Shown: positions 1 to 21,236, counted from the stretch's first letter. The stretch: 32,000 nucleotides of DNA from Nitrososphaerota archaeon (GCA_016871995.1 VHBL01000002.1:1-32000); one strand, 5' to 3'. The notes: generated from the letters alone by a model not told the origin. Numbers and translations are program-made.

Positions 1-140
1 AGTTTGTACCCTACCTTTCCCCAGCCCATGCCCGCGTCTATAATGACTTGTTGCTTGTTTGGATCTCCTAGCCAATTAGCTATGTGGTGGTCGACTATGT
101 TTTCTACGGTCAATTGATAACCAACTAGTTCTGCTGCCAC
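1..140 (-). CDS. edge-truncated ORF (first ~46 codons; continues past window start), function unknown, possibly a nucleotide/SAM-binding enzyme
   Basis: The minus-strand frame is open from GTG (138-140) to the window edge. It translates as AAELVGYQLTVENIVDHHIANWLGDPNKQQVIIDAGMGWGKVGYK. The VIIDAGxGxG stretch resembles a glycine-rich binding loop. It is absent from the ORF track because it is truncated. Confidence 0.25.
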   Translation of the reverse strand, partial: MAAELVGYQLTVENIVDHHIANWLGDPNKQQVIIDAGMGWGKVGYK

Positions 141-163
141 GACAAAAGGGGTATATTTGCTAA

Positions 164-352
164 TTAACCTTGAGTGTTAGGATGATAGACAGTCTCACTT
201 GGCTGGTCTGTAAGATTCATTTGGCATGATAGCTCGGCTAAAAGTATATTAGGAGCATCCTCAAAATTGCCCAAATCGGGGTTATTTTTGATTATAAGCC
301 TTGAAAATAAGCCAAGAAGGGTAAAGGGTGGTTTTGCCCATGATTTGTCCAT
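164..352 (-). CDS. hypothetical 62-aa ORF
   Basis: ORF only, with no motif recognised. It ends 23 nt upstream of the edge ORF in a neighbouring frame. The two could be one gene broken by a frameshift. Confidence 0.2.
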   Translation of the reverse strand: MDKSWAKPPFTLLGLFSRLIIKNNPDLGNFEDAPNILLAELSCQMNLTDQPSETVYHPNTQG

Positions 353-3300
353 GCTTGCTCAAAAGTATTGACCAGTTAGTAAAAACTGTGTCCTATTTTA
401 TCCGAATAATGGACGATTTGTCCACAATGGTTATATACCAATTTCTAAAACCTGCTCCTACAATTAATAGGTGTGTCCATAGATTGGATAATCGAAAAGT
501 AAAACTGACGGAAAAAATACACGCAGTAGCATTCATAGTGCTACTAGTAACGAGTGCTGTATTCATAGCTGCGCCTGCCTTCACTCCGAAGGCTTCAGCT
601 GCAGTGACAGGTACATTGACACTATCTCACTCTAAGCTGTACGGGAACAGTACACTAAGAATCCTGATAAGCGATTCTGATATCAACTTGGCATCATCGC
701 AATTTTCAAGCCTGAAACTGACCATAACAGCGAGCGGTGCAAATCCGGGCGCTGCAAAGAGCCTTAACGCTACGCAGCTCTCAGATGGTTCTTGGGTTGC
801 TCATATAGCCAACATGTCATGCTCTTCTCTATGTGCATCTAATAACGGTACTATAGGGCATAATAACTATGTACTTGGTCTTAATAGAACTACTAATGTA
901 AACTTTGGAACCGCTACCGGAAGCGTGGTCAGAACTGCCACAGCCATAAGGGTAGGTTCAGGTGGTAATCAAGTTGTAAAAGTAAATAACACAGATGCGC
1001 TAGCATACGTTCTAAACAATCTAAAAAGTGCCACTGGAAGGGTAGCTGGAAAGAACTATATTGAAAACCCAGGCACTATGGCAAGTAGGTACATAAATAG
1101 CACATTACTTAACCCCGTGATCCAACTCTTTAACTTTACCAGACTGGATACATTATCAATAACCTATACCGACTCAACAGGCTCCTCTGGAGGAAGCGTT
1201 GAAGTCACGCAGTCAATTACCTATGAATATACAACTGGAAGTGCTACAAATGATAGAACTTCAATACCAGCATCTGCGATATTAAGACCGGTGATTACCG
1301 ATATCGACAAGAACCGCGATCCCACAAGAGCAGATTCATTCACGGTAAGCAACAACTCCCACGCAGGAGGGAGGACTGGAAGTTTCAAGGAGAGTGGAAG
1401 CGTCTGGTTCGTTATTACAAGCACCAATACTACTGGAAGCATTAGCGGCACTATTGCAAAGAGGAACGGTACAGGTACTGGAGTTCAGCTTACGTTCACT
1501 GAGACTGGACTAAATACAAACGCGTTCGAACTGAATACAACAGCAGGCTTCAACTTGAACAACTCATTCCTGATACGCAGCGGTACATTTCTGCCCAGAG
1601 CTGTAAAAGATGGTGACTTAGTTAGAATTGTCTTCAGCGATATTGAAGCATCTACAGCACTAGCAGCAACAACAACCTTTGGCGTAACCTCAACAGTCTC
1701 TAGGAAGATTGGCTCTATATCTCTATCCACCTCAAGCGCAGCAATATCGAGTGATATTACGGTAACAATAACAGATCTAGATGCAAACAACAATACTAAG
1801 GCAAAAGATAGGTTTGTAGCGCTAGTCAGACTTAACACAACGGCAGGCTCTCTAGGAAGTGCCTCAATGGCGCGCGTTACTGCATGGGAGACCGATACAA
1901 ACTCGAGCACGTTCCAGTTCGTCATTAGACCTACATTATCTAATACAACACGAATCTCAGTATCTTCTACAGCACCCAACAACACACAAATCAACGGCAG
2001 AGTAACTGGTAGCGTTAGACCTGGTGATTCTGCAACATGGTACGTGACATATAACGACAACTTCACAGGCGTAATAACTGTCGCTAATGCAACTGCAAGT
2101 CTTGCGTGGAGCACAGGAACATCAATATCATTAGATAAGACTTCATATGGTTCATCAGACCTTGAGGCTAAGGTAACGCTTACTGAACCAAACGCAAATG
2201 ATTCAACAGCAGCTCAAGAGACGCTATCATTCAACTCTACTAAGAGGACTAGTGTAGAGAACTCAACAGTGAGATTCTCTGGCACCGTCAAGATAGGTAA
2301 CTTTGCATTAGTTGTCATAAACGGCACAAATGGTGGTCAAGGCATACGCAACTTTACAGCACTTGCAATAGAGACCTCAGCCAGCTCTGGTGTCTGGACA
2401 GTCACGATAAACTTGGCAACTCTTCGAGCTCAACCTAACGGTCTCACCAGCACTGATCAACTAAGAGTTTCATACACTAGCAAGTTCACCTCTACTACAT
2501 ACAATTCAACCGCAACTATCGGCGGAACTCTGGCGACGATCAACTTCAACAGAGCAGAATTTCCAATAGCTCCTAACAGAAGAGCAAACATGACCATCAA
2601 CGTGGTCGACACGGATCTGAATCAAAATCCATCCGCACAAGAGACTCTCACCCTAAGACTCTTTATCAGAAACGCAACTGACGGCGTCGTCGGTAACAGA
2701 ATTGCCTCAGGACCAGCAGCAGCACCATCAGGTGACATCAGGAGACTTAGTTGGTTCAATGTATCTTTGACCGAGACAGGACCCAACACAGGCGACTTCT
2801 CAGTGAAGATACTAGTTAACTGGAATAGCAGCAGTGTAGGAATGGCTAGATTAGCAAACTACAGCCACCCAACAAAGGCCCTCTTCAACCTAGATCGGAA
2901 TTCAGATCTAGTGGGCGGTAGGATTCAGGCATGTGTAACTGATGGACTAGGACCCACTACACTTGAAGCATCACAGGCAGGTACTGTCGCAAGTGCAAAA
3001 GGTGTATGCAAATCAATTAACTTCGCTGTACATGGCGCTACAATATCGACGAACGTGACATCAGCCAAGATAGGAACAGCGATCAAGGTCACCCTAACAG
3101 AGCAGGACTTAGACTCGGATGTGGGTGAAAAAGACACGGTCCAGATTAGGTTCGCTATCACAAAGGGTACAGCAGCACCCAGCGAGGACACAACACCTGA
3201 TCTGAACGTTACGCTCACACTCACAGAAACATCAGCCAGCTCAGGTGTATTCACCAATTCCAGCACGCTCGGAACAGGCGTCAACCCATTCAGCCAGGTC

Positions 3301-4485
3301 AACGCAAGCAACCACGTCAGATTCAGATACCAAGACGATGCTGCACCCGGTAGCACTGCATCTGCAGGCCTAGCAAAGGCAAAGATTACTACAACAGTAG
3401 TCGTGGGATCATCAACTGGCACTCTGACAACTATACCTACTTCAGAAACAGGGCCATACAACGTGTTAGTAGTAACGCTGGTCGATCCAGATTTGGCATT
3501 CAACAGGACAGGTACGCTAGGAACAGACTCTACAGGTAGAGTAGTCTTGCACTCGGTAAGGTCTGAGCAGACGAACGACGTAATCAACAATGTCCTAGCT
3601 AAGGAGATGGACCGCACTATAGGCAAGTTCAAGTTCAACATAACCATCTCATACTCGGCCACAGCTGTAACTACCGACCAAACACTCCAAGTCAATGCGA
3701 CCGACAAGATACACCTATTCTACAACGATAGGCTTGACAATGCAGGCGAAGTCAAAGTCGTTGAGAAGATAATCACAGTCACCACAAAGGACGGTGTACT
3801 AGCAACAAACAAGGCAAACTACCTCGTAGGCGAGGTCATAACAATCACTTTGACAGATATCGATGCGAACAGGGACTCAGGAGTAAGGAACACAACTACA
3901 GTAACAGTCACAACGAACAGCTGGACAGCAGGCACAGACATTACACTGCTAGAAGTAGCAGCTGATAGTGGAGTATTCACGGGACAGGTGACCATAGTCA
4001 GCACACTACCATCGGCAGGACAAGTGCTCGGAGCCGTCGGCGACGTAATAACCATAAAGTACATCGATGCATTCGGTAGCGGTGCAGTAAAGAAGACGAT
4101 ACTATTCACCGCACGCGTAGGAACATCCTTACCAAGGACACAGCAAGTCCCAGCATCAGCACCAGCAGTAGTCAACGCACAAGGACAGCCACTGACAACA
4201 GTACGAATGGGTGACGTAGCAACCATACAGGCCACAGTCAGGAACAATGACACAACAGCGCACACATTCACATACCTAGTCCAAGTCAAGAACGCACAAG
4301 GCGTAGTAGTGAGTCTGGCATGGCTCAGAGACATCTCACTAGCTGCAGGAGCGTCAACATCACCAGGTCTGGCCTGGATACCAAGTACGACGGGAACCTA
4401 CACAGTGGAAGTCTTCGTCTGGGAGAGCCTGACTAACGCGGTAGCACTCTCGCCAGTACAGAGGATCACTGTCACAGTGGGTTAG
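328..4485 (+). CDS. giant secreted, sequon-rich surface protein; candidate S-layer lattice subunit (SlaA-like architecture)
   Basis: 4.1-kb uninterrupted ORF. A hydrophobic signal-like segment (AVAFIVLLVTSAVFIAAPAFTPKASA/AV) lies at aa 66-92 of the maximal ORF. The real start is therefore probably ATG 409, ATG 427 or TTG 484, the last with AGGTG upstream. I counted about 40 N-x-S/T sequons by eye. The protein is Thr/Ser/Asn/Val rich and has no C-terminal TM. Motif pairs (V/I)T(L/V)xDxDxN ... ETxxxSGxF recur. The C-terminal ~110 aa looks like an Ig/CARDB-type beta domain. Confidence 0.85.
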   Translation: MVLPMICPCLLKSIDQLVKTVSYFIRIMDDLSTMVIYQFLKPAPTINRCVHRLDNRKVKLTEKIHAVAFIVLLVTSAVFIAAPAFTPKASAAVTGTLTLSHSKLYGNSTLRILISDSDINLASSQFSSLKLTITASGANPGAAKSLNATQLSDGSWVAHIANMSCSSLCASNNGTIGHNNYVLGLNRTTNVNFGTATGSVVRTATAIRVGSGGNQVVKVNNTDALAYVLNNLKSATGRVAGKNYIENPGTMASRYINSTLLNPVIQLFNFTRLDTLSITYTDSTGSSGGSVEVTQSITYEYTTGSATNDRTSIPASAILRPVITDIDKNRDPTRADSFTVSNNSHAGGRTGSFKESGSVWFVITSTNTTGSISGTIAKRNGTGTGVQLTFTETGLNTNAFELNTTAGFNLNNSFLIRSGTFLPRAVKDGDLVRIVFSDIEASTALAATTTFGVTSTVSRKIGSISLSTSSAAISSDITVTITDLDANNNTKAKDRFVALVRLNTTAGSLGSASMARVTAWETDTNSSTFQFVIRPTLSNTTRISVSSTAPNNTQINGRVTGSVRPGDSATWYVTYNDNFTGVITVANATASLAWSTGTSISLDKTSYGSSDLEAKVTLTEPNANDSTAAQETLSFNSTKRTSVENSTVRFSGTVKIGNFALVVINGTNGGQGIRNFTALAIETSASSGVWTVTINLATLRAQPNGLTSTDQLRVSYTSKFTSTTYNSTATIGGTLATINFNRAEFPIAPNRRANMTINVVDTDLNQNPSAQETLTLRLFIRNATDGVVGNRIASGPAAAPSGDIRRLSWFNVSLTETGPNTGDFSVKILVNWNSSSVGMARLANYSHPTKALFNLDRNSDLVGGRIQACVTDGLGPTTLEASQAGTVASAKGVCKSINFAVHGATISTNVTSAKIGTAIKVTLTEQDLDSDVGEKDTVQIRFAITKGTAAPSEDTTPDLNVTLTLTETSASSGVFTNSSTLGTGVNPFSQVNASNHVRFRYQDDAAPGSTASAGLAKAKITTTVVVGSSTGTLTTIPTSETGPYNVLVVTLVDPDLAFNRTGTLGTDSTGRVVLHSVRSEQTNDVINNVLAKEMDRTIGKFKFNITISYSATAVTTDQTLQVNATDKIHLFYNDRLDNAGEVKVVEKIITVTTKDGVLATNKANYLVGEVITITLTDIDANRDSGVRNTTTVTVTTNSWTAGTDITLLEVAADSGVFTGQVTIVSTLPSAGQVLGAVGDVITIKYIDAFGSGAVKKTILFTARVGTSLPRTQQVPASAPAVVNAQGQPLTTVRMGDVATIQATVRNNDTTAHTFTYLVQVKNAQGVVVSLAWLRDISLAAGASTSPGLAWIPSTTGTYTVEVFVWESLTNAVALSPVQRITVTVG

Positions 4486-4532
4486 GTGCATCCTAGATGC
4501 ACTCCCCCTCTCTTTTCTTTGAGGCGAACAAA

Positions 4533-5759
4533 ATGATCAAGAACATATCAATCGCACTATTACTGGTATCAATGATACTGGTGGCTTCGCCACTAGCGTC
4601 AGCACAAGCTGTAACTGCAACAACTAACAAGACGAACTATGTGGCTGGAGACAGACTGAGTGTCGCAGGTGTAGGTCCCGCAAATGACGATGTGACAGTC
4701 ACTCTAACCAATCCTAACGGAGCGTTGGTAGGCATTGCTCAAGGTAGAGTCAGTTCGAACAACGTGTACAACGTTACTGTGCTAACATTTCCGTCTGGTG
4801 ACCAGAGATTCCCATTTGGAGCCTATTCAGTCCGAGTAACAGCGGCAGCCGCAGCAGCATCAACAACAGTCACAATAAACTTTGCAGCAACTACAGGTAC
4901 TGTAACGCCACCACCAGCAGTAGGCGGTGCTGGAGGGCTAATAGTATCCGTCCATGCGGAAGGGACATACTTTTCAGGTGATAGAGTCCGTATCTACGCA
5001 ATAATAACAAACAATGGTGCTCTAGCAGACCCAACAGCATTTTCGGCAGCTCACGTCCACAGGATGGACAATACAATAGATCAGTTGCTGGGAACTCAGC
5101 AGAGAATACATGCTGGCTGGTATTATTTCGACTACACTGTTCCAGCTAATGCAGCTCCTGGAACCTATGGTGTTCATGTTGGAGTTACATTAGCCTCTGC
5201 AGGAAGTAACGGCGATGCGGCATTCCAAGTAGCACCAGCAAACAGGGACACGGCAGCACTTGCAACACAGCTTACAACCATAAACACGGCTATCCAAGGT
5301 GTCAGCACAGCTCTAAACGGGCTGAGCCAATCATTCACTGCACATGACCAAAGATTAACAGCTATTCAGACAGCAGTCACGACAGCACAGACAGCGATAA
5401 CTGGAAGGATCAATACTCTGGATACAGACATAACATCAAGGCTGAATGGTGTTGCGGGAGCAGTTGGGACTCAGATAATAACAGCGCAGAATACTATTGT
5501 ACAGAGAGTCGATGGCATACCAGCATCAGTAAACACCGCAGTCACAACGGCAGTTCAGAATGCACAAACAGCTATAACAACTGCAGTCAAGAATGGATTT
5601 ACTGAGCTCGGTGGCAATGTAGAGGAGATCGAGGACAGCGTCAGAAGCGCAGCAGCGGGAACTGCACAGTCATCAACATTCGTGCTGGTGATTGCAGGGC
5701 TAGCTGCATTGAGCGTAGTGCTCCAGATAGCCATACTCACGAGAAAGAAGAGCGCATAG
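4533..5759 (+). CDS. membrane-anchored coiled-coil surface protein; candidate S-layer stalk/anchor (SlaB-like architecture)
   Basis: ATG 4533 is preceded by GAGG 9 nt upstream (the ORF-track start at 4497 is less likely). The signal peptide is MIKNISIALLLVSMILVASPLASAQA. Two beta-rich segments follow, then ~140 aa of T/A/Q/I/N-rich heptad-like sequence (TAIQGVSTALNGLSQSF...TAQTAITGRINTLDTDITSRLNG...). The protein ends in a single TM helix (FVLVIAGLAALSVVLQIAIL) and a basic tail (TRKKSA). The start lies 47 nt after the upstream stop. Confidence 0.8.
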   Translation: MIKNISIALLLVSMILVASPLASAQAVTATTNKTNYVAGDRLSVAGVGPANDDVTVTLTNPNGALVGIAQGRVSSNNVYNVTVLTFPSGDQRFPFGAYSVRVTAAAAAASTTVTINFAATTGTVTPPPAVGGAGGLIVSVHAEGTYFSGDRVRIYAIITNNGALADPTAFSAAHVHRMDNTIDQLLGTQQRIHAGWYYFDYTVPANAAPGTYGVHVGVTLASAGSNGDAAFQVAPANRDTAALATQLTTINTAIQGVSTALNGLSQSFTAHDQRLTAIQTAVTTAQTAITGRINTLDTDITSRLNGVAGAVGTQIITAQNTIVQRVDGIPASVNTAVTTAVQNAQTAITTAVKNGFTELGGNVEEIEDSVRSAAAGTAQSSTFVLVIAGLAALSVVLQIAILTRKKSA

Positions 5760-5761
5760 CG

Positions 5762-5787
5762 CTTTTCCTTTCCCTTTTCTTTTTTTT
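5762..5787 (+). terminator. pyrimidine/oligo-T tract after the surface-protein pair
   Basis: The sequence cttttcctttcccttttctttttttt ends in a T8 run (5780-5787). Oligo-T tracts are the known archaeal termination signal. Confidence 0.4.
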
Positions 5788-5828: not shown

Positions 5829-7328
5829 ATGCAAAACCAAGGTGATGGTTCAGGGTTACGTATCGCTTATGCCGGGTTCGTCCAGTTCCTAACTCAACTT
5901 GTAGGCTTGGGAACGGGCCTGCTTTTTGTTACTCTAATTACCAGAAACCTTACCGTTTCTGATTTTGGACTCTGGCAGGTTATTGGGAGCGCAGTAGGGA
6001 TAGCTATCCTTCCTGCGAGTGTCGTCACGTTCTGGAACCTCCGGGGTGTTGCCAGAAGGGAGGACGTAGGTCGAACTTCAGTTGTTGCAGGTATGCTATC
6101 GCTTCCCCTAACTTTTGCAATTCTTTTAGCAGTTTCCACTGGTGTAGGTTCACGGATAGAACTGGTTGGCTTTGTTGTCATTGCAGCATTGCTCCAGTTA
6201 CCATTCATGGTACTCTTCGAATCGGTAAAAGGTACCATCCAAGCTACGAAACCGGCATTTCTTGGTTATTCGAGCATTTTCTTTGAAATTGCAAAGGTTA
6301 GCGTAGCGTTCTATCTGGTAATCATGCTGAAAGTAGGCCTTTACGGCGCCATATTGGCCCTTGCCTTGGCATATGCAATACAAGACCTGATAATAATCAT
6401 CACAGTAAAAGGGAAACTTGGAGGTAGAATAGATCTCGCATTAATCAAGCAATGGATAAAGGCAGCTTGGGTGCCTCTTCTTGATAGAGGGGTCAGCAGG
6501 CTCTGGAGTTCTGACGCCATTCTGGTTGCTCTGATGCTCGGAAGTACAGTTCCGGTGGGGTTGTTTCAGGGACCGAGGATCTTTACAGCGATAATAATGT
6601 ATAGCGAGATATTTCTCCGTGTTCTTTACCCGAAGCTCATAAGAGACAGATTGAAGGCTGATATTGGAGTAGCATTCAGGCTGCAGAGCCTTCTGGAAGT
6701 TCCTATGGTCGTGGGCGCAGTCATGCTTGCTGGAGACCTCCTTTCTGTACTTGGAGCAGAGTATGTCAGTTCGGCTCTTCTTTTACAGCTTCTAGCAATT
6801 GTAGCAGTTGTGGAGAGCATAGAGCGCGTAATGTACTTTGTACTTTACGGTACAGAGACTGTAGACTCGAAACGTGATGGTTATTCGTTCAAGAACCTCA
6901 AGTCGAGCTGGCTAGTAAAGCTTCCACTGCTGGATCTATCAAAGTCTGTTATATACATGGGCGCACTTGCAGCTGCGCTGTATCTTTTTGCTACACCCGC
7001 TAAACCGGAGCTTGTAGCTTTGATCTGGGGAATTATTTACGCAGTAGTAACAGTGCCTTATGCTGTACTGAAGTTGATACTGGCTCGAAAGTTCTTCCCG
7101 CATACTCTACCTTGGGTGCAGCTCGTGAAATATGTGGTTGCTGGGGTTGTTATGGGGTTAGTACTTTTGCTTTTTAGAGGAGAGACTCCTGCAGAGCTAA
7201 GCGTAATATCCGCAGTTATCCGTCTTGGATATCTAGTAGGTTTGGGTGCTGGAGTCTATTTCGGAATTCTGGCACTAATCGATTCGCACTTTAGGGGCAT
7301 GGTCAAAACCCTAACCAAAAGACAGTGA
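5829..7328 (+). CDS. polysaccharide/oligosaccharide flippase (MOP/Wzx-type polysaccharide biosynthesis protein)
   Basis: 499 aa, hydrophobic throughout, with roughly 12-14 predicted TM segments. The N-terminal pattern (GFVQFLTQLVGLGTGLLFVTLITRNLTVSDFGLWQVIGS) is typical of Wzx/RfbX-type proteins. It sits among glycosylation genes. Confidence 0.75.
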   Translation: MQNQGDGSGLRIAYAGFVQFLTQLVGLGTGLLFVTLITRNLTVSDFGLWQVIGSAVGIAILPASVVTFWNLRGVARREDVGRTSVVAGMLSLPLTFAILLAVSTGVGSRIELVGFVVIAALLQLPFMVLFESVKGTIQATKPAFLGYSSIFFEIAKVSVAFYLVIMLKVGLYGAILALALAYAIQDLIIIITVKGKLGGRIDLALIKQWIKAAWVPLLDRGVSRLWSSDAILVALMLGSTVPVGLFQGPRIFTAIIMYSEIFLRVLYPKLIRDRLKADIGVAFRLQSLLEVPMVVGAVMLAGDLLSVLGAEYVSSALLLQLLAIVAVVESIERVMYFVLYGTETVDSKRDGYSFKNLKSSWLVKLPLLDLSKSVIYMGALAAALYLFATPAKPELVALIWGIIYAVVTVPYAVLKLILARKFFPHTLPWVQLVKYVVAGVVMGLVLLLFRGETPAELSVISAVIRLGYLVGLGAGVYFGILALIDSHFRGMVKTLTKRQ

Positions 7329-7332
7329 AAAA

Positions 7333-8025
7333 ATGTTTGGCATATACAAGAGCATAAAGGCGATCTTTGGACCAGTCTTTGGACGCTTGCTGGGAAACAG
7401 GTATAGACTTCCTGCACGTCTTTTGGAATTAAAGCTGGCGTCGTTATTGGGTAACCCAGTTAACGAAAGAATAATCGAGTATCCTTGGGTCCTTGACCGT
7501 CTTAAAGAAAGGAAAGGTGGAAAAATACTCGATGTCGGATGTGGTTGGCCAGGCCTGCTATCAAGTTACCTTCTTTCCAAGGGCTATGATGTATATGGGC
7601 TTGACATTGTACAATGTAAGACTCTCCCGCAGGATAGGTTTTTTCTGCTTGACGCAAGGAAGACAAATCTTCCTAATGCTTCTTTTGATACGATCATCTC
7701 GCTGTCTACATTGGAACATATAGGAACCGATGAAGAAGAAGACGATATCAAGACCATGCAGGAAATGTGGCGCCTGCTTAAGAAAGATGGCGTATTGCTT
7801 TTCACTACGCCATTTGCCGCCAAATACGGCAATAGAGGCCAAAGGTTCTTCAGCAAAGAACGTCTAATGGAAATAACAAAATCTTTCAGAGTGCACGACA
7901 CTAAATACTTCATTCAAAAAGGCAGCAGCTGGGTAGAAGTATCATTGGGAGATGCCGAGGATGCAACGCGCAACTACGACGGCGTTCATTCCATAGCCAT
8001 AGTCGCTATGGTACTCGAGAAGTAA
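7333..8025 (+). CDS. class I SAM-dependent methyltransferase
   Basis: Motif I is ILDVGCGWPG, followed by an acidic residue at the end of beta-2 (YGLDI). A post-motif LSTLEHIG is also present. Length 230 aa. Confidence 0.85.
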   Translation: MFGIYKSIKAIFGPVFGRLLGNRYRLPARLLELKLASLLGNPVNERIIEYPWVLDRLKERKGGKILDVGCGWPGLLSSYLLSKGYDVYGLDIVQCKTLPQDRFFLLDARKTNLPNASFDTIISLSTLEHIGTDEEEDDIKTMQEMWRLLKKDGVLLFTTPFAAKYGNRGQRFFSKERLMEITKSFRVHDTKYFIQKGSSWVEVSLGDAEDATRNYDGVHSIAIVAMVLEK

Positions 8026-8027
8026 CT

Positions 8028-8804
8028 CTAACCTATCCATTCAGGCCTTACTGGCTCGAGTTTCAAGGTGGATTCGTCAAGGATTGAATAGAGCTGTTCA
8101 GCTATAGAATATTCGTCCCGTTTTGGCTCCCTTTTAGCTATCAGACTGGCATACCATATCTGATTCTTGACAAAATGGTTCCAATTCACAGCAGCATGAT
8201 GTAGAAGTATTATGTCGGTATTGACCCGTTTCCCCTCGACACCCTGCACAGGATTTCTCCCGAAGTACGGTCTCAGTCTTTCTTTGCCTAGTAGATGCTT
8301 AGCTAGTCTCTTTAAGAACGGGCCCGCAGGGTTGGGAAATCTTAGTTTGGTCGACGCTCTTACCAAATATGTGTTAAAGGCATAGGAAAGAAACTTGTCG
8401 GGCCTGTCCACGCGATAGTGCCGATCATTCTTCCATAACCAATATTTTTTGAAGGTATATAGGCCAACATCATTATGCTCGGTCAACTCCCTAATTTCTT
8501 TCCGTAGCCTTGGCTCGAAGGTTTCGTCGGAGTCCATGAAGAGTATCCAGTCAGCCTTTCTCTGGAGAGCCATTTTGAGTAGCAAGTTCATGTCGTTCCA
8601 TTCAATTCTTGTCGATTTGCCCTTTATCAAATCAGCCAACGCAACGTTTGGGATACTTCTGACTATACGTTCAGTTTCGTCACTCACAAACCCTCTCCCT
8701 ACAACAACTACTTCATCCACAGTCAAAGATAGGTTCTTCAAACTCTTAGGCAAGATCCATTCGCAGTTACCACCTACCTGCATGGCTCCAACTATCTTCA
8801 TCAC
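8028..8804 (-). CDS. family 2 glycosyltransferase (GT-A fold)
   Basis: 258 aa. The N-terminal Rossmann-like strand is followed by the DxD-type motif FMDSDE. The size and layout match GT2. Confidence 0.8.
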   Translation of the reverse strand: MMKIVGAMQVGGNCEWILPKSLKNLSLTVDEVVVVGRGFVSDETERIVRSIPNVALADLIKGKSTRIEWNDMNLLLKMALQRKADWILFMDSDETFEPRLRKEIRELTEHNDVGLYTFKKYWLWKNDRHYRVDRPDKFLSYAFNTYLVRASTKLRFPNPAGPFLKRLAKHLLGKERLRPYFGRNPVQGVEGKRVNTDIILLHHAAVNWNHFVKNQIWYASLIAKREPKRDEYSIAEQLYSILDESTLKLEPVRPEWIG

Positions 8805-8926
8805 GCAACCTAATCAGAAATCGGTTTATAGAGTTAGTACCTTTCAAAAAAATCTAACCCTTGGTATTTAATGGACAATTAAGAAAACTTTAAGCACAGA
8901 GCTTAGGTTGGAAATTCGGCTAGACC

Positions 8927-10075
8927 TTGTTTCCACTGCTCATGATACCAGGACCAACTACATTGCATCATAGGGTAAGGAAAGTGATGAACGACCCTCA
9001 GGTAGGCCACTCTAGCAAAGAGTTCTACGAAGCTTTTGTAGAGCTTTTACAGCTGACAAAGAAGGTATACAAGAGCACAAAAGGCCATCCATTCGTGATA
9101 ACTGGCTCTGGGACGATAGCGATGGAAGCTACTGCAGTGAGCTTGATAGAGCCCGATGACCCAGTAGTTGTTCTTGACACTGGCCATTTTGGGCAGAGAT
9201 TCGAATTAATTCTGAATTCTCAGGGTGCAAAAGTTGACACCTTGAGTTTCAAGTTCGGAAATCACGCCGAGCCAAAGATTCTCCAAGATAAGATCTCGAA
9301 GAAAAAATACAAAGCCGTATTCATGACACACGTTGACACATCATCGACAGTTTCAAATCCCATAAAGGAATTGGTGCGAATAGCAAAGGACGCAGGAGCT
9401 CTAGCTATAGTCGACGCTGTATGTAGTCTTGGCGGAATGGAAATTGACTTCGACAGTCTCGGTGCTGATGTTGTACTAAGTGCATCACAAAAGGCCCTCG
9501 GCGCTCCTCCTGGTGTTGCTCTGATGATGCTCTCGCAAGGTGCTATAGAGTGGATGAACAGAAGAAAGGTTCCCATTAGATCATATTACCTGAACTTGCT
9601 CAGGTGGAAGCCAATAATGGAGGACCCCAAGATGTACCTAGCTACACCAGCTGTTCAAGTAATGCTAGCACTCAAAGAGGCTTTGACCATGGTCATTGAG
9701 GAAGGGTTAGAACCAAGATGGGAAAGACACAGGAAACTTGCAGAAGCTGTAAGGACAGGCTTGGCAGCGTTAGATCTTTCGTTTATAGCTGAGGATGGTT
9801 ATAGGGCAAATACAGTGACAGGAATCCATGTTCCAAAGGGCGAAGCTGGTCAGATCCAATCATCTCTGAAATACGAATACAACGTGGAAGTTGCTAGAGG
9901 TTTTGGGGATTTGAAGGAGGACGCTCTCAGAATAGGGCATTTTGCAAATGTTGATAAAATGCATGTGACTGCACTTCTCTCCGGGATGGAGTTGACGCTC
10001 AGAAGTCTGGGCATTGATGTCCCGAAGGGGACTGCAATTGAAGCAGCGTCCAAGTTTCTCTTGCCTGGTGCCTAG
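8927..10075 (+). CDS. class V PLP aminotransferase (serine/alanine-glyoxylate or serine-pyruvate aminotransferase family)
   Basis: The N-terminus LMIPGPTT and the PLP-lysine context SASQKALGAPPG are both present. Length 382 aa. The start is TTG 8927 or ATG 8942. Confidence 0.85.
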   Translation: MFPLLMIPGPTTLHHRVRKVMNDPQVGHSSKEFYEAFVELLQLTKKVYKSTKGHPFVITGSGTIAMEATAVSLIEPDDPVVVLDTGHFGQRFELILNSQGAKVDTLSFKFGNHAEPKILQDKISKKKYKAVFMTHVDTSSTVSNPIKELVRIAKDAGALAIVDAVCSLGGMEIDFDSLGADVVLSASQKALGAPPGVALMMLSQGAIEWMNRRKVPIRSYYLNLLRWKPIMEDPKMYLATPAVQVMLALKEALTMVIEEGLEPRWERHRKLAEAVRTGLAALDLSFIAEDGYRANTVTGIHVPKGEAGQIQSSLKYEYNVEVARGFGDLKEDALRIGHFANVDKMHVTALLSGMELTLRSLGIDVPKGTAIEAASKFLLPGA

Positions 10076-10130
10076 CACTCGACAGACTTAAGAACAAAGT
10101 ATTGTTAGATTATCAAAAGAGAAATTCAAT

Positions 10131-11282
10131 TTGAGGTCTGTATCAATCATCGGAACACATCTAACAAACTTTGGAAAACTTGACAAAAACCTGAAGCAGA
10201 TAGCTGCCGAAGCGTGTGTAGGTGCCATGGATGATGCTGGAATCTCTCCTAGACAGATAGAAGAGTTTGTACTTGGGAATTTTGCCTCTGGAACACTGAC
10301 AAAGCAGGAAACTGTGGCACCCATAGTGGCAAATGCCGTGGGACTTGCAAGCATACCCGCTACCAAAGTTGAAGGGGCGTGTGCCTCGGGTGGGATAGCG
10401 CTAAGGTATGGTTATCAGATGGTTGCCAGCGGTCTTCGAGATTTTGTGCTAGTTGCTGGTGTTGAGAAGATGACCGCAGCACCAACAACAAAGGCAATTG
10501 AGAGCCTTGCAGCTGCAGAAGACATGGAGATCGAAGGAAGGACTGGGCTAACATTTCCAGGTTTTTTTGCATTAGTAATGAACCGTTATTCGCAGAAGTT
10601 CGGGACTACAAGGGAGCAGATAGCCCAAGTTTCAGTCAAAAATAGGAAATACGGGACGCGTAACCCAAAGGCGCAGTTCAGGAAGGAGGTCACAGTTGAG
10701 GAGGTCATCAACTCCCGCCTAATTGCTGACCCTATTAGACTGCTAGACTGTTGTGGAATAAGCGATGGTGCTGGGGCGGCAGTACTTTGTCCTACTGAAA
10801 CAGCGCGCAAGTTTACGGACACGCCAATTCAGATTGCTGGAATAGCACAGGTAAGCGGAAAAGGTGCAGCGTTCGAATACGAAGACCTTACGGGTTTTGA
10901 ATCTACTAAAGTGGCTGCAGAGCAGGCTATGCGTATGGCTAGAGTTTCTCACAGAGAGGTAGATGTGCTTGAATTGCATGACTGCTTTACGATTGCTGAG
11001 ATTGTAGCAAGCGAAGATCTTGGATTTTTCACAAAGGGGGCTGGTTCAGGGGCACTTGAGGAAGGAGAAACCCAGATTGGAGGAAAGATCCCGATAAACC
11101 CTAGCGGAGGGCTGCTATCAAAAGGCCATCCTATCGGTGCGACAGGCATAGGCCAGGTATATGAAATAGTTGAGCAGCTCAGAGGGGAAGCACCTAATCA
11201 GGTTTCTGACGCTAAGGTAGGAATGACACATAATTTCGGGGCAACAGGAACAGTATGCGTAGTGAGCATTCTCAAAAGGTAG
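10131..11282 (+). CDS. archaeal-type thiolase (acetyl-CoA C-acetyltransferase, SCP-x-like)
   Basis: The nucleophile Cys lies in EGACASGG. The C-terminal half carries NPSGGLLSKGHPIGATG and HNFGATG. The gene is followed by DUF35. Confidence 0.9.
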   Translation: MRSVSIIGTHLTNFGKLDKNLKQIAAEACVGAMDDAGISPRQIEEFVLGNFASGTLTKQETVAPIVANAVGLASIPATKVEGACASGGIALRYGYQMVASGLRDFVLVAGVEKMTAAPTTKAIESLAAAEDMEIEGRTGLTFPGFFALVMNRYSQKFGTTREQIAQVSVKNRKYGTRNPKAQFRKEVTVEEVINSRLIADPIRLLDCCGISDGAGAAVLCPTETARKFTDTPIQIAGIAQVSGKGAAFEYEDLTGFESTKVAAEQAMRMARVSHREVDVLELHDCFTIAEIVASEDLGFFTKGAGSGALEEGETQIGGKIPINPSGGLLSKGHPIGATGIGQVYEIVEQLRGEAPNQVSDAKVGMTHNFGATGTVCVVSILKR

Positions 11283-11590
11283 CAGTGTACAGGTGTAAGG
11301 ACTGTTCTTCAACAACCGTGTCTTACAGGGCAATATGCCAGAACTGCTCTTCGAAGAACATTGAAAGCGTTAAACTGGATGGCAGAGGGAGGATATTCGC
11401 ATATACGATAATCAGGGTAGCTCCTGAGCAGTTCAAGACGCAAGAGCCATATGCTGTTGGGATTGTGAAACTGGATTCTGGTCAACTGGTTAGCGGGAGG
11501 CTAATAGCGCAAAATTTGGAGATACTAGAAAACGGGATGAAAGTAGTGCTCGAAAATGTAGATGATGCAGGCTTCTGGTTCAGAGTTTAG
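11255..11590 (+). CDS. DUF35 Zn-ribbon/OB-fold protein (thiolase-associated scaffold)
   Basis: The Zn ribbon is CKDC-x10-CQNC, followed by an OB-like segment (GRIFAYTIIRVAP...PYAVGIVKLDSGQLVSGRL). It overlaps the thiolase 3' end by 28 nt. An alternative GTG start at 11285 would remove the overlap. Confidence 0.85.
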   Translation: MRSEHSQKVAVYRCKDCSSTTVSYRAICQNCSSKNIESVKLDGRGRIFAYTIIRVAPEQFKTQEPYAVGIVKLDSGQLVSGRLIAQNLEILENGMKVVLENVDDAGFWFRV

Positions 11591-13707
11591 CTCAGGGTTA
11601 CTGGATGGAACCTGATTCTTCTTGCAGAGTTGCTTAGAGAGCCCACAATAGCGATCTTATAGCCGCAGTTTAGACACTTGTTATTCCTGTCCATCTTCCA
11701 GTCTAGTATGTCGTAGCCGTAGCGTTGCACAACTATCTGCTTGCATCCAGGGCAGTAGGTATGCTCGAGAGAATGGCCTGGGACGTTTCCTATGTAGACA
11801 TAGTTCAAACCAACCTCTTTTCCTATTTCATGGTGCCTGACAAGTGTCTCTATAGGCGTCATAGGAAAGTCCATCATCTTGTAGTCAGGGTGGAAGCGCA
11901 AGAAGTGTATCGGAGTATCGGGGCCAAGGTTGTCATATACCCACTTTGAAAGATGCCTTGCAGAGTCTAGAGAATCGCCCACTCTGGGCACTATCAAGTC
12001 AGTAATTTCAAGATGAATCTTAGTTTTCCCTTTTAGTTCGAGGAGGTTCTGAAAGATAGGATCAGCACTGGGTATGCCTATGAACTTCCTGACAAATTCC
12101 CTCTCCCCGCTGCCTTTGAAGTCCACAGTAATACAGTCTAAAAAGTTGGGCATCATTGCAATTGATGGAGGCGTCATGAAACCGTTTGAAACGAAGATGT
12201 TGATCAAGCCTTCCTTCCTTGCGACTAGCCCTATGTCATGGGCATATTCAATGAATATGGTGGGTTCGTTGTAGGTGTATGCTATGCCATCGGCTTGATA
12301 CTTCTTGGCCATTTTGACAATATGCTGTGGTGAAGCATCAGTACCTTCTACCTTTCTTCTCTGGCTTATGTCGAAATTCTGGCAATAATGGCAATTATGA
12401 ACCAGAATGCCATCCGCGACATAGTTATGGTTGGGGATACATTCTAAGCTGTACACTTCCTCGAATCTTTTGGCTTGCTCTATGGATTCGATAGTTAACC
12501 ACTGTCTCTTATTCGTTCTGACTACAGGAGCTGACCTTTCAAGCAGAAGAGTTTTTACCTCTTCTGGATGGTTGAAAAGTTGCCTTCCAGATATTCGGAT
12601 TACCCGCCAGCCATTAAGCTCGAGTGTTTGGTCTCTGATTTTGTCGTTTTTTGCAACCTGTAAGGAGTTATAATGCCACCAGCCATCTACTTCGATGTCT
12701 ATTTTCGCCTCAATCAACGCGGCATCGGCTATATAGTAAGACTTTGAACCCTCGATTCCCTTTTCCACTTTGATCTTGTATTCGGGCTGGTATGGTAGAC
12801 TTAATTCTTCGAGTAATCTATAGAGACGCTCCTGCCCTTCCGAGGGGTACCTGTAAAGCCATGTTCTAAGCCTCTCAACATTGCAGTGCCAACCATACGA
12901 TGGATCTGAGAGAAACCTTTCTTGACTAGTCTTTATCAGCTTTTTTACACATTCAGTTTCCTTCATAGGGTTATTGTTTAACATCCTGTTTCTGACATTT
13001 GCTGAATGCTCCTCAGTCCACTCCAACCCTCTGACGTAGCACTCTCCTCTATGCGCATTCCAGGCAGCTAGTCCTGTAACTCTGGCGCTACATACTGCAC
13101 ACCTAAAGACTGCGTTCTTAATGGATTCACTTCTCTTTGAATGCCAAGTTGGCGTATTTTGATACCAGACTTTTAAGACGTTGTCACCATCATTCAGCTC
13201 TCCTACCTCTTTCCAACCTCGCTGTGTTAGTACGGGGTGCTCCTTGGTTGCATAGAAAGTGCCGTGGCCCCTACTTCCATAAGATACTTCATAGATTTCT
13301 GCCCACCTTCTTCCAACGTGAGTAACTACTGAAGGAACGATTTTGAAACCTTTGTTAACCTCGTAAGACCACAGCGTGTCACCTGGCAGTATGCTTTCGA
13401 CTGTCTTTTGGCTCCCATCGGCCATCATAATATTCGTACCCTTTGGATGACAAAGCCAGTTACAACCCGTGGTAGCTATGGAGAATATTTTGGAGCCAGG
13501 CATAAAATGGGTTACTGGCTTCTTTTCTATCGGGTCTACGTGTCCAGCTATGACCTTGCCATAAACCAGAAGTTGGAGTTTACCATCAATGTTCTGCCTG
13601 ATTCCGCAGAGCCCGATCTTTCCTTCTGGTATGTTACAGTATCTGGAACAAGCAGTACAGAGAACTCTCTTTTCTGGCAGCTGCTCGTATAGGACGGCTT
13701 CCTTCAA
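11587..13707 (-). CDS. AmmeMemoRadiSam-type radical SAM enzyme (AmrS / PFL-activase-like) interrupted by an intein
   Basis: The exteins read MKEAVLYEQLPEKRVLCTACSRYCNIPEGKIGLCGIRQN...SIATTGCNWL // CHYCQNFDISQ...YTYNEPTIF...C-terminal CPGC...CLNC ribbon. Removing aa 86-438 restores GCNWLCHYCQN, the CxxxCxxC motif. The start codon is TTG. Its stop overlaps the convergent DUF35 stop. Confidence 0.9.
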   Translation of the reverse strand: MKEAVLYEQLPEKRVLCTACSRYCNIPEGKIGLCGIRQNIDGKLQLLVYGKVIAGHVDPIEKKPVTHFMPGSKIFSIATTGCNWLCHPKGTNIMMADGSQKTVESILPGDTLWSYEVNKGFKIVPSVVTHVGRRWAEIYEVSYGSRGHGTFYATKEHPVLTQRGWKEVGELNDGDNVLKVWYQNTPTWHSKRSESIKNAVFRCAVCSARVTGLAAWNAHRGECYVRGLEWTEEHSANVRNRMLNNNPMKETECVKKLIKTSQERFLSDPSYGWHCNVERLRTWLYRYPSEGQERLYRLLEELSLPYQPEYKIKVEKGIEGSKSYYIADAALIEAKIDIEVDGWWHYNSLQVAKNDKIRDQTLELNGWRVIRISGRQLFNHPEEVKTLLLERSAPVVRTNKRQWLTIESIEQAKRFEEVYSLECIPNHNYVADGILVHNCHYCQNFDISQRRKVEGTDASPQHIVKMAKKYQADGIAYTYNEPTIFIEYAHDIGLVARKEGLINIFVSNGFMTPPSIAMMPNFLDCITVDFKGSGEREFVRKFIGIPSADPIFQNLLELKGKTKIHLEITDLIVPRVGDSLDSARHLSKWVYDNLGPDTPIHFLRFHPDYKMMDFPMTPIETLVRHHEIGKEVGLNYVYIGNVPGHSLEHTYCPGCKQIVVQRYGYDILDWKMDRNNKCLNCGYKIAIVGSLSNSARRIRFHPVTLS
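12394..13452 (-). mobile_element. intein (353 aa) with an embedded endonuclease module
   Basis: The first residue is Cys (CHPKGTNIMMADGS, block A). Block B TxxH is ATKEHPVLT. Blocks F/G are VYSLECIPNHNYVADGILVHN, followed by the +1 Cys. The central ~210 aa lacks LAGLIDADG motifs. It carries a C2HC finger and a DUF559/Vsr-like stretch: YYIADAALIEAKIDIEVDGWWH...GWRVIRISGRQL. Confidence 0.85.
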
Positions 13708-18962: not shown

Positions 18963-21003
18963 TTGCCTGTGTTGGCAGAAAAGCAAACTGTGTGCCCTTT
19001 CTGCGGTGTTGGTTGCGGCATAACCGTTTCAATAGTTGATGGAATACCAAAAAGAGTCCTTGGAGTCAAGGATCATCCTGTGAGTAGAGGGCATTTATGT
19101 GCAAAGGGCCTAGCGGCACTTGACATTCTGGCATCAAAGGAACGCTTGGGATATCCTCTAAAGAGAAACAACTTTGGCTCTTTTGAAAGAATTTCGTGGT
19201 CTAACGCTTTATCACAAATTAGTTCACGCATTAGAAGCATTGTTGAAAGACATGGTTCTGACACAATAGCCTTCTCAGGCGGCTGCTTGTGCACAAATGA
19301 AGAAAACTATCTGATTCAGAAACTTGCAAGGAGAATCGGAACTAATAACGTTGACAGCTGCGCAAGGCTCTGCCATCAACCATCTCTACATGCATTGAAG
19401 CGTATGGTAGGTTTCGGTGCTGCAAGCACTCCAATGAGTAGCATGAAGGATTCTAAACTATTAATGTTCATAGGCTCTAGTCTTGCTGACTCGCATCCCA
19501 TACTTACTCAATATGTAATGGCAGCCAAGAACAACGGGGCCAAAGTAATAGACATAGATCCTAGAGAGCCTTCCCTTGCTAGCTAAGTTTGCAGACCTTC
19601 ATCTGAAGATATCACCGGGGACTGATATTGCTCTGCTGAATGCTATGGCTAATGTAATCATAAGCGAGGGTCTTCAGAATGAACAGTTCATTCAAGATAG
19701 GACGACTGGCTACGAAGAGTTTAAGCAAGCAGTGGAGAAGTATTCACCTGAGAGCGTTGAAAGAATAACTAATGTGAATCCTTTTTTGATAAGGCAGGTT
19801 GCAAGACTATATGCCACGTCCGGAACGTCACTGATTCTTGCAGGGATAGGCATTACAGAGCAAATTCAAGGAACAAATACGGTCGCAGCAGTAGTCAACC
19901 TTGCACTTCTGACAGGCAATTATGGCAGGACAGGCACGGGAGTATGCCCTTTAAGGGGTCAGTCCAATGTTCAGGGGGCAGGAGATGTTGGAGCCTCTTC
20001 AGAGTTCTTCCCCGGAGGGCTAACAGTTAATGTAGAAAATGCAAAAGTGATGGAGAAAGCGTGGAGGTTCACAGTTCCTTCAAATGGAGGAGCAACGATG
20101 ATGGAGATGATCTCCAAAGCGCTGACCGGAGAGATCAAAGCTCTGTATTTTATGGGCTTCAACCCTGTGCACAGCCTTCCAGACAGGACACGGACAGAAA
20201 AGGCGCTTTCATCTCTTGAATTACTGGTAGTTCAGGACATCTTCATGAGCTCAACTGCAAACTTTGCGCACTATGTCCTCCCATGTGCAACTTGGCTAGA
20301 ACGGGAGGGTTCAACGACAAACATGGACAGAATGGTTCAATGGAGGGACAAGCTTTTAGCTCCATTGGGAGAAGCAAAGCCGGACTGGGAAATTCTTATC
20401 GAACTAGCAAAGGTACTAGGTTTCAGTGAGTTTGACTATAACTCTCCGCGTGATGTCTTGAAGGAGATAAGTCAGGTAGTTCGTGCATATTCAGGCATAA
20501 GCTGGGAACTGCTTTCAAGCAACATAGAGGTTCGATACCCTCTAGCGGATGGTAAAAACACTGATGTGCTCTTCGCGGAAAAGTTCAATACACGTGATGG
20601 TAAAGCAAATTTTGTACCCGTCGAATACCTACCAATTCAGTTCACCTCTGAAGAATTCCCTTTCGTGTTGACAACAGGTAGAGTAATTTCCAGATACAAT
20701 ACAGATGTTATGACTGGCAAATCAAAGCTACTGCTCATTCCTGGGACAGACATCAACTATGTTGAAGTTAATCCCGAAGACGCTGAAAGAATCGGTTTCA
20801 GGGAAGGGGACAAGGCGAGCATCACTTCGAGGTTTGGCAATGTGGTCCTGAGCGTGAGGATAACAACGTCAGTAAGGAATGGAATGTTGTTTGCACCAAT
20901 GCATGGAGGTATGGTGAACTATGTCACAGGAGGGTGCTTAGATGAAACTTCCCTTACTCCGTGCTACAAATGGACTGCTGTAAGACTGGCGCGTGCCGTT
21001 TAG
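18963..21003 (+). pseudogene. molybdopterin oxidoreductase, formate dehydrogenase alpha (FdhF-like, Cys type), split by a 1-nt frameshift
   Basis: The N-terminal 4Fe-4S motif is CPFCGVGCG...GHLCAKG. The active-site context CARLCHQPS is a Cys-His pair at the position where FdhH has SeCys-His. Frame 1 ends IDIDPREPSLAS* at 19586. Frame 2 continues LAKFADLHLKISPGTDIALLN, and the two frames overlap at 19558-19586. No Tat signal. Confidence 0.8.
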
Positions 21004-21132: not shown

Positions 21133-21236
21133 GCCACCGTAGCTCAGCGTGGTAGAGCAGCTGAATATTGTGCTGATGCTGTTACCTCGTTGAGAGAGAA
21201 ACCAGCTGGTCGTCGGTTCAAGTCCGACCGGTGGCG
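21133..21236 (+). tRNA. tRNA-Asn(GUU) with two short introns (14 nt at 30/31; 16 nt at 37/38)
   Basis: Acceptor stem GCCACCG/CGGTGGC, discriminator G73. D-arm GCTC-AGCGTGGTA-GAGC. T-arm GTCGG-TTCAAGT-CCGAC. Removing 21164-21177 and 21185-21200 gives the anticodon arm GCTGG-CTGTTAA-CCAGC. Both introns can be drawn as bulge-helix-bulge motifs (see findings). The mature length is 74 nt. CCA is not encoded. Confidence 0.8.

Follow-up and report, generated by a model that had tools for sequence, protein, structure and literature searches.

The 32,000-nucleotide (nt) stretch of Nitrososphaerota archaeon DNA analyzed here (GCA_016871995.1, VHBL01000002.1:1-32000; hereafter the window) carries, near its 5' end, two consecutive plus-strand genes that probably specify a two-component surface layer (S-layer). 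The first (open reading frame 1, ORF1) encodes a large protein predicted to be secreted, and the second (ORF2) a smaller, membrane-anchored one. An initial annotation, made by eye from the sequence, had described them as a SlaA/SlaB-like module outside the Sulfolobales, that is, a lattice protein followed by a stalk. The outline of this description stands, in that a lattice protein is paired with a coiled-coil stalk anchored by a transmembrane (TM) helix, but ORF1 is not recognizably SlaA. It belongs to the family of the Nitrosopumilus maritimus S-layer protein (NmSLP), and its partner is, judging from profile comparisons, a distant relative of SlaB. Coordinates of the features discussed below are collected in Table 1.

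Table 1. Features of the window. L-numbers denote related loci described in the text; aa, amino acids; SLP, S-layer protein; AF2, AlphaFold model
Feature	Coordinates	Strand	Evidence
Gene for the S-layer lattice (canopy) glycoprotein, NmSLP family (ORF1, slp)	484..4485	+	Alignment, phmmer, hhalign, Foldseek
SLP C-terminal domain, aa 1214-1333	4123..4482	+	Family identity comparison, phmmer to 8c8k_A
Gene for the SlaB homolog, 408 aa (ORF2, slaB)	4533..5759	+	NCBIfam NF040788, profile to PDB, AF2, Foldseek, relatives
Stalk of ORF2, aa 238-375	5244-5657	+	Hydrophobic periodicity
Conserved region upstream of the SLP gene, putative promoter region: inverted repeat GGACGATTTGTCC (411-423), TATA-like TTATATA (431-437), Shine-Dalgarno-like AGGTG (469-473)	411..473	+	Alignment
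Conserved intergenic element: candidate hairpin GTGCATC-CTA-GATGCAC (4486-4502), pyrimidine/T-rich tract (4503-4520), GAGG (4521-4524)	4485..4524	+	Four-locus comparison, RNA fold
T-rich tract after the slaB stop, with T8 run (5780-5787); putative terminator	5763..5787	+	Read from sequence
Polytopic membrane protein, 499 aa, no known family	5829..7328	+	Conserved position in L002, L003, L009
S-adenosylmethionine (SAM)-dependent methyltransferase	7333-8025	+	Pfam Methyltransf_11, E 4e-14
Family 2 (GT2) glycosyltransferase	8028-8804	-	Glycos_transf_2, E 2.5e-5, just above cut-off
AmmeMemoRadiSam-system radical SAM enzyme	11587-13707	-	
Molybdopterin oxidoreductase, first ORF	18963-19586	+	
Molybdopterin oxidoreductase, second ORF	19576-21003	+	
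tRNA, 104 nt	21133-21236	+	Rfam, 49.8 bits

Gene boundaries and domain layout

The longest possible ORF1 begins with a GTG at position 328, ends at 4485 on the plus strand and encodes 1385 aa, the length originally given for it. This is the maximal reading frame, but translation almost certainly starts at the TTG at 484 to yield 1333 aa, because two related loci (L002 and L010) have an ATG at the position aligned with this TTG and the 70 nt upstream are near-identical in all three sequences, whose encoded SLPs are ~50% identical. Counted from this start, a hydrophobic helix spans aa 12-33 and is followed by ASA (aa 64-90 under the 1385-aa reading), and the signal peptide covers aa 1-39/40. In a hydropathy scan, this N-terminal helix was the sole segment of ORF1 with a Kyte-Doolittle value above 1.6; because there is no second such segment, the protein lacks a membrane anchor. 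The scan thus bears out the signal-like helix and missing anchor noted by eye, and the visual estimate of ~40 N-x-S/T sequons was also accurate: a program counted exactly 40. Composition-preserving shuffles contain 24.5 ± 4.3 sequons, and only two of 2000 reach 40.

ORF2 starts at an ATG 47 nt beyond the ORF1 stop codon and is preceded by a GAGG motif, its putative ribosome-binding site. Hydropathy identified hydrophobic segments only at aa 1-29 and 377-405. The protein consists of a signal peptide (aa 1-26), two β-sandwiches (aa 27-120 and 135-235), a coiled-coil stalk (aa 238-375), a TM helix (aa ~380-402) and the basic tail RKKSA. Its AlphaFold model, with a mean predicted local distance difference test score (pLDDT) of 59 overall and ~80 for the first domain, contains a helix at aa 240-375. 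With 3 sequons against 4.7 expected, ORF2 is not sequon-rich. The initial annotation had recorded the 408-aa length, the 47-nt gap, the GAGG, the signal peptide, two β-rich segments, a single C-terminal TM helix and a basic tail, all of which were confirmed, as was the oligo-T tract after the second ORF.

Family relationships and synteny

Sequence and structure comparisons identify ORF1 as an NmSLP-family S-layer protein that is SlaA-like only in size, gene position and role. A phmmer search against PDB sequences gave one real match, N. maritimus NmSLP (8c8k_A, E 2.3e-27), which is strongest over the C-terminal 220 residues (8c8k_A aa 1508-1733). An independent test was provided by a profile of the window's own clade, built without Nitrosopumilus sequences: hhalign matched it to Nitrosopumilaceae SLPs over 832 columns in the C-terminal two-thirds (probability 100%, E 6.5e-50). 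A nine-sequence ORF1 profile that included Nitrosopumilus-type sequences matched 8c8k_A at E=0, a circular result that was not used as evidence. The AlphaFold (AF2) model of ORF1 aa 43-1242 is all-β, with a pLDDT of 54 and acceptable quality only from ~aa 500 on. Among the best 50 of its 1493 Foldseek matches to the PDB, NmSLP structures take all of the first four places (E 2e-34 to 1e-23), ahead by ~10-20 orders of α2-macroglobulin/complement arrays, which come next at 1e-13. The S-layer similarity that had been suggested for HMMER and Foldseek searches is therefore present, and it points to NmSLP. Membership in this family is indicated by sequence homology, by the matching array of immunoglobulin (Ig)-like β-sandwiches and by a conserved C-terminal domain.

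The same searches gave no sign that ORF1 is the counterpart of SlaA by descent, as the comparison with SlaA/SlaB had implied, and we rejected it as a SlaA homolog. No SlaA chain appeared among PDB sequences at E≤10, either with ORF1 in phmmer or with the nine-sequence family profile, although such a chain should be in the library because SlaB of the same entry (8QOX) was found. No SlaA model matched ORF1 in NCBIfam or in the local copy of Pfam, and no SlaA structure was among the best 50 Foldseek matches of the model. What ORF1 shares with SlaA is a functional profile: it is large, predicted to be secreted and N-glycosylated, without an anchor and encoded upstream of slaB, which amounts to analogy and not homology. 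One relative of ORF1, P0012, bears the precomputed Pfam label 'PF28202: SlaA-like', an unconfirmed pointer to a family that the local copy of Pfam does not contain.

For ORF2, phmmer alone against PDB sequences gave only spurious WD40 and antibody matches, and SlaB came up only once a profile was used. The NCBIfam SlaB model NF040788 matches ORF2 aa 8-125, the first β-sandwich, with profile positions 7-124 (E 8.7e-10). At 38 bits, against an equivalog cut-off of 700, ORF2 ranks on sequence as a distant member of the SlaB family and not as an ortholog by the NCBI rule. A profile of eight ORF2 homologs (A1) had as its best PDB sequence Sulfolobus acidocaldarius SlaB (8qox_B, E 7.9e-6), with the coil aligned and the N-terminal domain weakly aligned in the correct order, and Foldseek likewise placed 8qox_B first for the ORF2 model (E 3.4e-9, full length, 503 columns). 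When A1 was compared with 1.84 billion representatives, 681 proteins matched at E≤1e-3 and 158 at E≤1e-10. The SlaB model in turn matched 77 of 102 sampled A1 relatives, at best with E 2e-106; P0161, for example, matched A1 over its full length at E 3.6e-11 and the SlaB model at E 1.5e-47. Because A1 relatives score on the SlaB model, an unbroken sequence space leads from ORF2 to Sulfolobales-type SlaB. Together with the β-sandwich homology, the domain architecture and the position directly downstream of the lattice gene, these profile comparisons argue that ORF2 is a real SlaB homolog and not a convergent look-alike. The SlaB-like character first ascribed to ORF2 is thus detectable with NF040788, A1 and Foldseek, but the independent origin that had been offered as one option is wrong for this gene. 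Sub-threshold Pfam matches of ORF2 and its relatives (MG2, Baculo_PEP_C, DUF7310) were discarded, as they indicate merely 'β-sandwich' and 'coiled coil'.

The pair is also co-conserved, so the objection foreseen in the initial annotation, a lack of co-conservation in relatives, does not hold: an SLP gene directly followed by a SlaB homolog occurs at eight of nine distinct related loci (the window, L002, L003, L009, L010, L005/L006, L007 and L008). In the window's own clade (L002, L003, L009 and L010), the order is SLP, SlaB homolog, 499-507-aa membrane protein and 231-aa methyltransferase, the L010 contig stopping within the third gene; the SLPs of L002 and L003 are 48-58%, and their SlaB homologs 55-70%, identical to those of the window. 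The L005/L006 locus represents the clade of P0012, in which the SLP is 30% identical to ORF1 and is directly followed by a SlaB homolog of 31% identity (E 2e-28). Downstream of the SLP genes of the Nitrosopumilus-type locus L007 and of L008, which represents a further lineage, lie genes of 323 and 319 aa, respectively, each encoding a signal peptide, two β-sandwiches, a short coil and a TM helix, and each matching A1 in hhalign (97.8%, E 1e-12). All named homologs come from Thaumarchaeota/Nitrososphaerota (Thaumarchaeota, Nitrososphaera, Nitrosopumilaceae), which agrees with the Nitrososphaeria-like impression first given by the rest of the window. No contig was found for the homolog P0014 (Nitrososphaera sp.).

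At the ninth locus, L004 (GCA_035631875.1, DASQHX010000011.1), the Nitrosopumilaceae-type SLP homolog P0016 (1780 aa, 6001-11343) has no adjacent slaB; downstream of it lie a 90-aa ORF and genes for cytochrome oxidase. P0016 may represent the second type of SLP paralog; alternatively, the L004 genome may carry slaB at another place.

Charge, stalk and the proposed S-layer

ORF1 has a net charge of +8 and an isoelectric point (pI) of ~8.9, and its window-clade relatives range from +4 to -5. Over the window and P0012 clades together, SLPs have net charges of +8 to -5, pI values of 6.3-8.9 and 2.1-3.0 sequons per 100 aa, with ORF1 at 3.0. In contrast, the Nitrososphaera- and Nitrosopumilaceae-type homologs (P0013-P0017 and P0019) have net charges of -50 to -215, pI values of 4.0-4.6 and 0.5-1.2 sequons per 100 aa. 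ORF1 is thus neutral, and its sequons are 2.5-6 times denser, compared with SLPs of the type found in ammonia-oxidizing archaea (AOA). It lacks the strongly acidic surface of NmSLP-type proteins, which is a functional property and no criterion of homology. Relative to its acidic AOA relatives, this charge-neutral, sequon-dense canopy may be a new variation.

Conservation along the protein is uneven. The C-terminal domain (aa 1214-1333) is 35.6% identical to distant AOA-type SLPs, versus 11-22% elsewhere along the protein, and 53% identical to P0012, versus about 20% in other parts, and the N-terminal third is barely alignable to NmSLP-type proteins. This C-terminal domain is better conserved than any other part of the family's SLPs, as would be expected if it bound a conserved partner on the membrane-facing side. 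The corresponding domain of NmSLP lies on the membrane side and was proposed by the authors as an anchoring aid (PMC11153153). We infer that SlaB is the partner, with docking predicted at this domain.

The stalk of ORF2 had been described as ~140 aa of heptad-like sequence. A helical stalk of 137 aa is present, but its hydrophobic period is 3.65, corresponding to 11-residue hendecads with hydrophobic positions 1/4/8, and power at 3.50, the heptad period, is not significant. At 3.67, power reaches 96-108 compared with a shuffle mean of 9, and none of 2000 shuffles is as high. The SlaB homolog of L005, from the P0012 clade, is of the same hendecad type (stalk of 163 aa, period 3.65-3.67). Those of L007 and L008 have stalks of ~65 aa with a period of 3.50, about half as long as that of ORF2, and heptads (3.50) are also found in S. 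acidocaldarius SlaB (8qox_B) and in P0161. At about 0.15 nm per residue, the ORF2 stalk is predicted to be roughly 20 nm long. This long hendecad stalk may be a further new variation. An 11-residue repeat is also used by the stalk of tetrabrachion from Staphylothermus marinus.

The locus has likenesses to several known systems. With the NmSLP system it shares an SLP homologous in sequence and fold, with a conserved C-terminal domain and N-glycosylation sequons common to both, and a downstream SlaB homolog with a signal peptide, two β-sandwiches, a coiled coil and a C-terminal TM helix; ORF1, however, has 1333 aa versus 1734 in NmSLP. With SlaA/SlaB of the Sulfolobales (S. acidocaldarius; PDB 7ZCX and 8QOX) it shares the order of lattice gene and stalk gene, similar protein sizes, the domain order of SlaB and a stalk length resembling the S. 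acidocaldarius coiled coil. It differs in that ORF1 has no detectable SlaA similarity, in the coil period, and in the two β-sandwiches of ORF2, where S. acidocaldarius SlaB has three Ig-like domains (bioRxiv 10.64898/2026.08.21.746120). Tetrabrachion also has a long membrane-anchored coiled-coil stalk that keeps its canopy off the membrane (bioRxiv 10.64898/2026.08.21.746120), but there stalk and canopy are one polypeptide; no tetrabrachion match turned up in any search, none of which was aimed at tetrabrachion similarity. ORF1 aa 960-1313 also gave a weak local match to the Kustd1514-family S-layer glycoprotein of anammox bacteria (NCBIfam NF052345, E 6.9e-14). Membership in that family was rejected, as ORF1 scores 50 bits where 1400 are required and the family is bacterial and without a SlaB partner; the match probably reflects Ig-like repeat domains common to S-layer glycoproteins.

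A two-component canopy-plus-stalk S-layer outside the Sulfolobales, whose novelty the initial annotation had implied, is already in the literature. N. maritimus encodes a homolog of the cell-anchoring SlaB (von Kügelgen et al. 2024, PMC11153153), which is Nmar_1546 and adjoins NmSLP, Nmar_1547 (preprint, bioRxiv 10.64898/2026.08.21.746120). Moreover, Jung et al. (2024, PMC11559005) recorded slp and slaB in every AOA group but Nitrosocosmicus, and a SlaB homolog in most Nitrososphaerota has been published (PMC11153153; PMC11559005; bioRxiv 10.64898/2026.08.21.746120). The locus is a further, uncharacterized example, of interest not for the module itself but for its variations in charge, glycans and stalk.

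On the observed homologies, domain architecture, synteny, sequon enrichment and repeat periodicity, we consider it likely that the two genes belong to a Nitrososphaeria (thaumarchaeal) organism and form an S-layer operon, in which ORF1 supplies a glycosylated lattice of the NmSLP type and ORF2 the SlaB-type coiled-coil protein that anchors it. ORF1 would be exported via Sec, carry N-glycans on many of its 40 sequons and assemble into the outer lattice (canopy) as an array of Ig-like/β-sandwich domains like that of NmSLP. ORF2 would be held in the cytoplasmic membrane by its C-terminal TM helix, and its ~137 residues of 11-residue repeats would oligomerize as a parallel coiled coil to form the stalk of roughly 20 nm. 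The two N-terminal β-sandwiches would reach the underside of the canopy, where they probably touch the SLP C-terminal domain, a contact that would set the width of the pseudo-periplasm, predicted at about 25-30 nm and thus wider than the ~65-aa stalk of Nitrosopumilus-type SlaB homologs would allow. A single strong, conserved promoter probably drives both genes, and the hairpin and pyrimidine tract between them may reduce slaB expression relative to slp.

Several points weigh against this proposal. SLP paralogs exist in N. maritimus, and ORF1 may likewise be a secondary SLP copy, with only 32 kb of the genome visible. One related SLP gene, that of L004, has no neighboring slaB. The AF2 models are of low confidence overall (pLDDT 59 for ORF2 and 54 for ORF1), and that of ORF1 gives practically no structure for the first ~500 residues. 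The Foldseek match of ORF2 to 8qox_B (3.4e-9) is hardly distinguishable from those to complement MG domains (3.6e-9), with TM-scores all ~0.2, so that the fold evidence from this model, taken alone, does not discriminate and can be supporting only. In addition, some of the HMMER similarity to SlaB sits in the coiled coil, whose composition easily gives rise to spurious matches, and the coil period is 3.65 in ORF2 versus 3.50 in 8qox_B. Finally, the SlaB homolog of N. maritimus is much scarcer than NmSLP, which makes stoichiometric anchoring doubtful there (PMC11153153).

These points leave room for three other explanations. Gene order, protein sizes and division of labor would all be accounted for if the pair were a divergent SlaA/SlaB, ORF1 being a highly diverged SlaA ortholog and the whole module coming from a Sulfolobales-type module; ORF2 as a true SlaB homolog would fit as well, as would the SlaA-like Pfam label on P0012, a homolog 30% identical to ORF1, and the preprint calls NmSLP 'SlaA' and has HHpred cross-matches among Ig-rich Thermoproteota S-layer proteins (bioRxiv 10.64898/2026.08.21.746120). 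We nevertheless consider this unlikely, given that PDB searches reaching SlaB of 8QOX reached no SlaA chain at E≤10, that NCBIfam and the local Pfam copy gave no SlaA match, and that the best 50 Foldseek matches consist of NmSLP and α2-macroglobulin/complement arrays. It is also quite improbable that ORF1 is a secondary surface glycoprotein (an adhesin or minor SLP paralog) that does not form the lattice, with ORF2 anchoring ORF1 or something else. ORF1 lies beside slaB exactly as NmSLP does (Nmar_1547/1546), the upstream, putative promoter region is very strongly conserved, the neutral SLP type adjoins slaB at every window-clade locus and in the P0012 clade, and the homolog search gave only one such large protein per contig. 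The limited view of the genome, the paralogs of N. maritimus, a charge-neutral and sequon-dense composition unlike that of acidic AOA lattice proteins, and the poor conservation of the N-terminal third of ORF1 speak on the other side.

Hardly credible, in our view, is an origin of ORF2 as an independent coiled-coil surface fiber, a tetrabrachion-like hendecad stalk whose resemblance to SlaB would be convergent. Its stalk period does differ from the heptads of S. acidocaldarius SlaB, and much of the profile-to-PDB score stems from the coiled coil, but NF040788 matches the N-terminal β-sandwich and not the coil (E 8.7e-10), and the hhalign match to the heptad-type Nitrosopumilus neighbors spans both β-sandwiches (~212 columns, E 1e-12). 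The domain order is that of SlaB, and about three-quarters of the sampled relatives (77/102) match the SlaB model.

Two 'hypothetical proteins' thus receive names, ORF1 as an S-layer glycoprotein of the NmSLP family and ORF2 as an anchor of the SlaB family. The locus also supports the idea that, in two-component S-layers across Thermoproteota (Sulfolobales and Nitrososphaeria), SlaB is the anchoring half that has been conserved, whereas the canopy protein was exchanged or diverged beyond recognition. A bolder reading, which we consider less likely than not, is that the window's clade has a variant S-layer, in which the canopy has lost its strong negative charge, is shielded instead by ~3x more N-glycans and is held ~2x farther from the membrane on a SlaB stalk that has changed from heptads to hendecads. 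If so, the SLP C-terminal domain would be the SlaB docking site and the intergenic hairpin would tune the SLP:SlaB ratio. The strongly acidic AOA surface has been proposed in the literature to attract and channel ammonium (ammonium/cation-sieve model), and the contrast between neutral, glycan-dense and acidic canopies bears on this view of AOA S-layers as ammonium-concentrating sieves. Because the acidic surface underlies the model, a neutral relative is informative, and the charge contrast alone could change thinking. No amo or other diagnostic genes for ammonia oxidation were found in the 32-kb window, and the literature search on pyruvate kinase in non-AOA lineages yielded no usable evidence on this point; if the organisms are not ammonia oxidizers, the clade would offer a ready-made negative control for the idea that an acidic S-layer works as a cation sieve.

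Intergenic elements and neighboring genes

The near-invariant stretch upstream of the SLP gene includes an inverted repeat followed by TATA-like and Shine-Dalgarno-like motifs (Table 1), and it is a putative promoter region. Two independent assemblies, a Logan SRR16108666 contig and JGI 3300020200 Ga0194121_10000373, stop just upstream of, or just inside, slp; the loci concerned are window positions 1-483 and the contig ends of L001 and L011. These breaks suggest a repeat or a strain-variable region upstream of slp.

Directly 3' of the slp stop codon lies a potential hairpin whose stem is invariant in the window, L002, L009 and L010, with loops of CTA, CTA, ATA and CAA, respectively, and with proteins ~50-70% identical (coordinates elsewhere: L002 4989-5027, L009 849-888, L010 4953-4992). 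L003 was left out of this comparison owing to its aberrant slp-slaB junction. The intergenic RNA folds at -17.8 kcal/mol (z = -2.0). The structure is a candidate, because no compensatory changes in the stem were seen among the four loci. Hairpin and pyrimidine tract may act in attenuation or transcript processing, giving less SlaB than SLP, and the conserved hairpin may, like the canopy charge and the stalk, be a new variation. Gene callers mistake the hairpin region for coding sequence and add a spurious 'MHSPSPFFEANK' to the N-terminus of SlaB. Beyond slaB, the T-rich tract with its T8 run is likely an archaeal terminator, to judge from its sequence; termination of archaeal transcription at oligo-T is established.

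The 499-aa membrane protein encoded next is 64-84% identical in L002, L003 and L009 and has ~10-12 hydrophobic segments. Searches of Pfam, NCBIfam and PDB sequences, also with a four-sequence profile at E≤10, gave no match, which makes it an orphan family, and we can only speculate that it transports a glycan or lipid-linked oligosaccharide. The methyltransferase gene, syntenic in L002, L003 and L009, and the glycosyltransferase gene are probable glycan-biosynthesis neighbors.

Three observations concern the remainder of the window. The 104-nt tRNA, unreported by ARAGORN, is probably an intron-containing archaeal tRNA. A formate-dehydrogenase-like molybdopterin oxidoreductase is divided between two ORFs that overlap in different frames: the Fe4S4 domain and the beginning of the molybdopterin domain lie in the first, and the remainder lies in the second. 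The split is due to a frameshift, to pseudogene formation or to a fault in the assembly. The radical SAM enzyme contains an intein with a DUF559/endonuclease-like insert (aa ~86-440).

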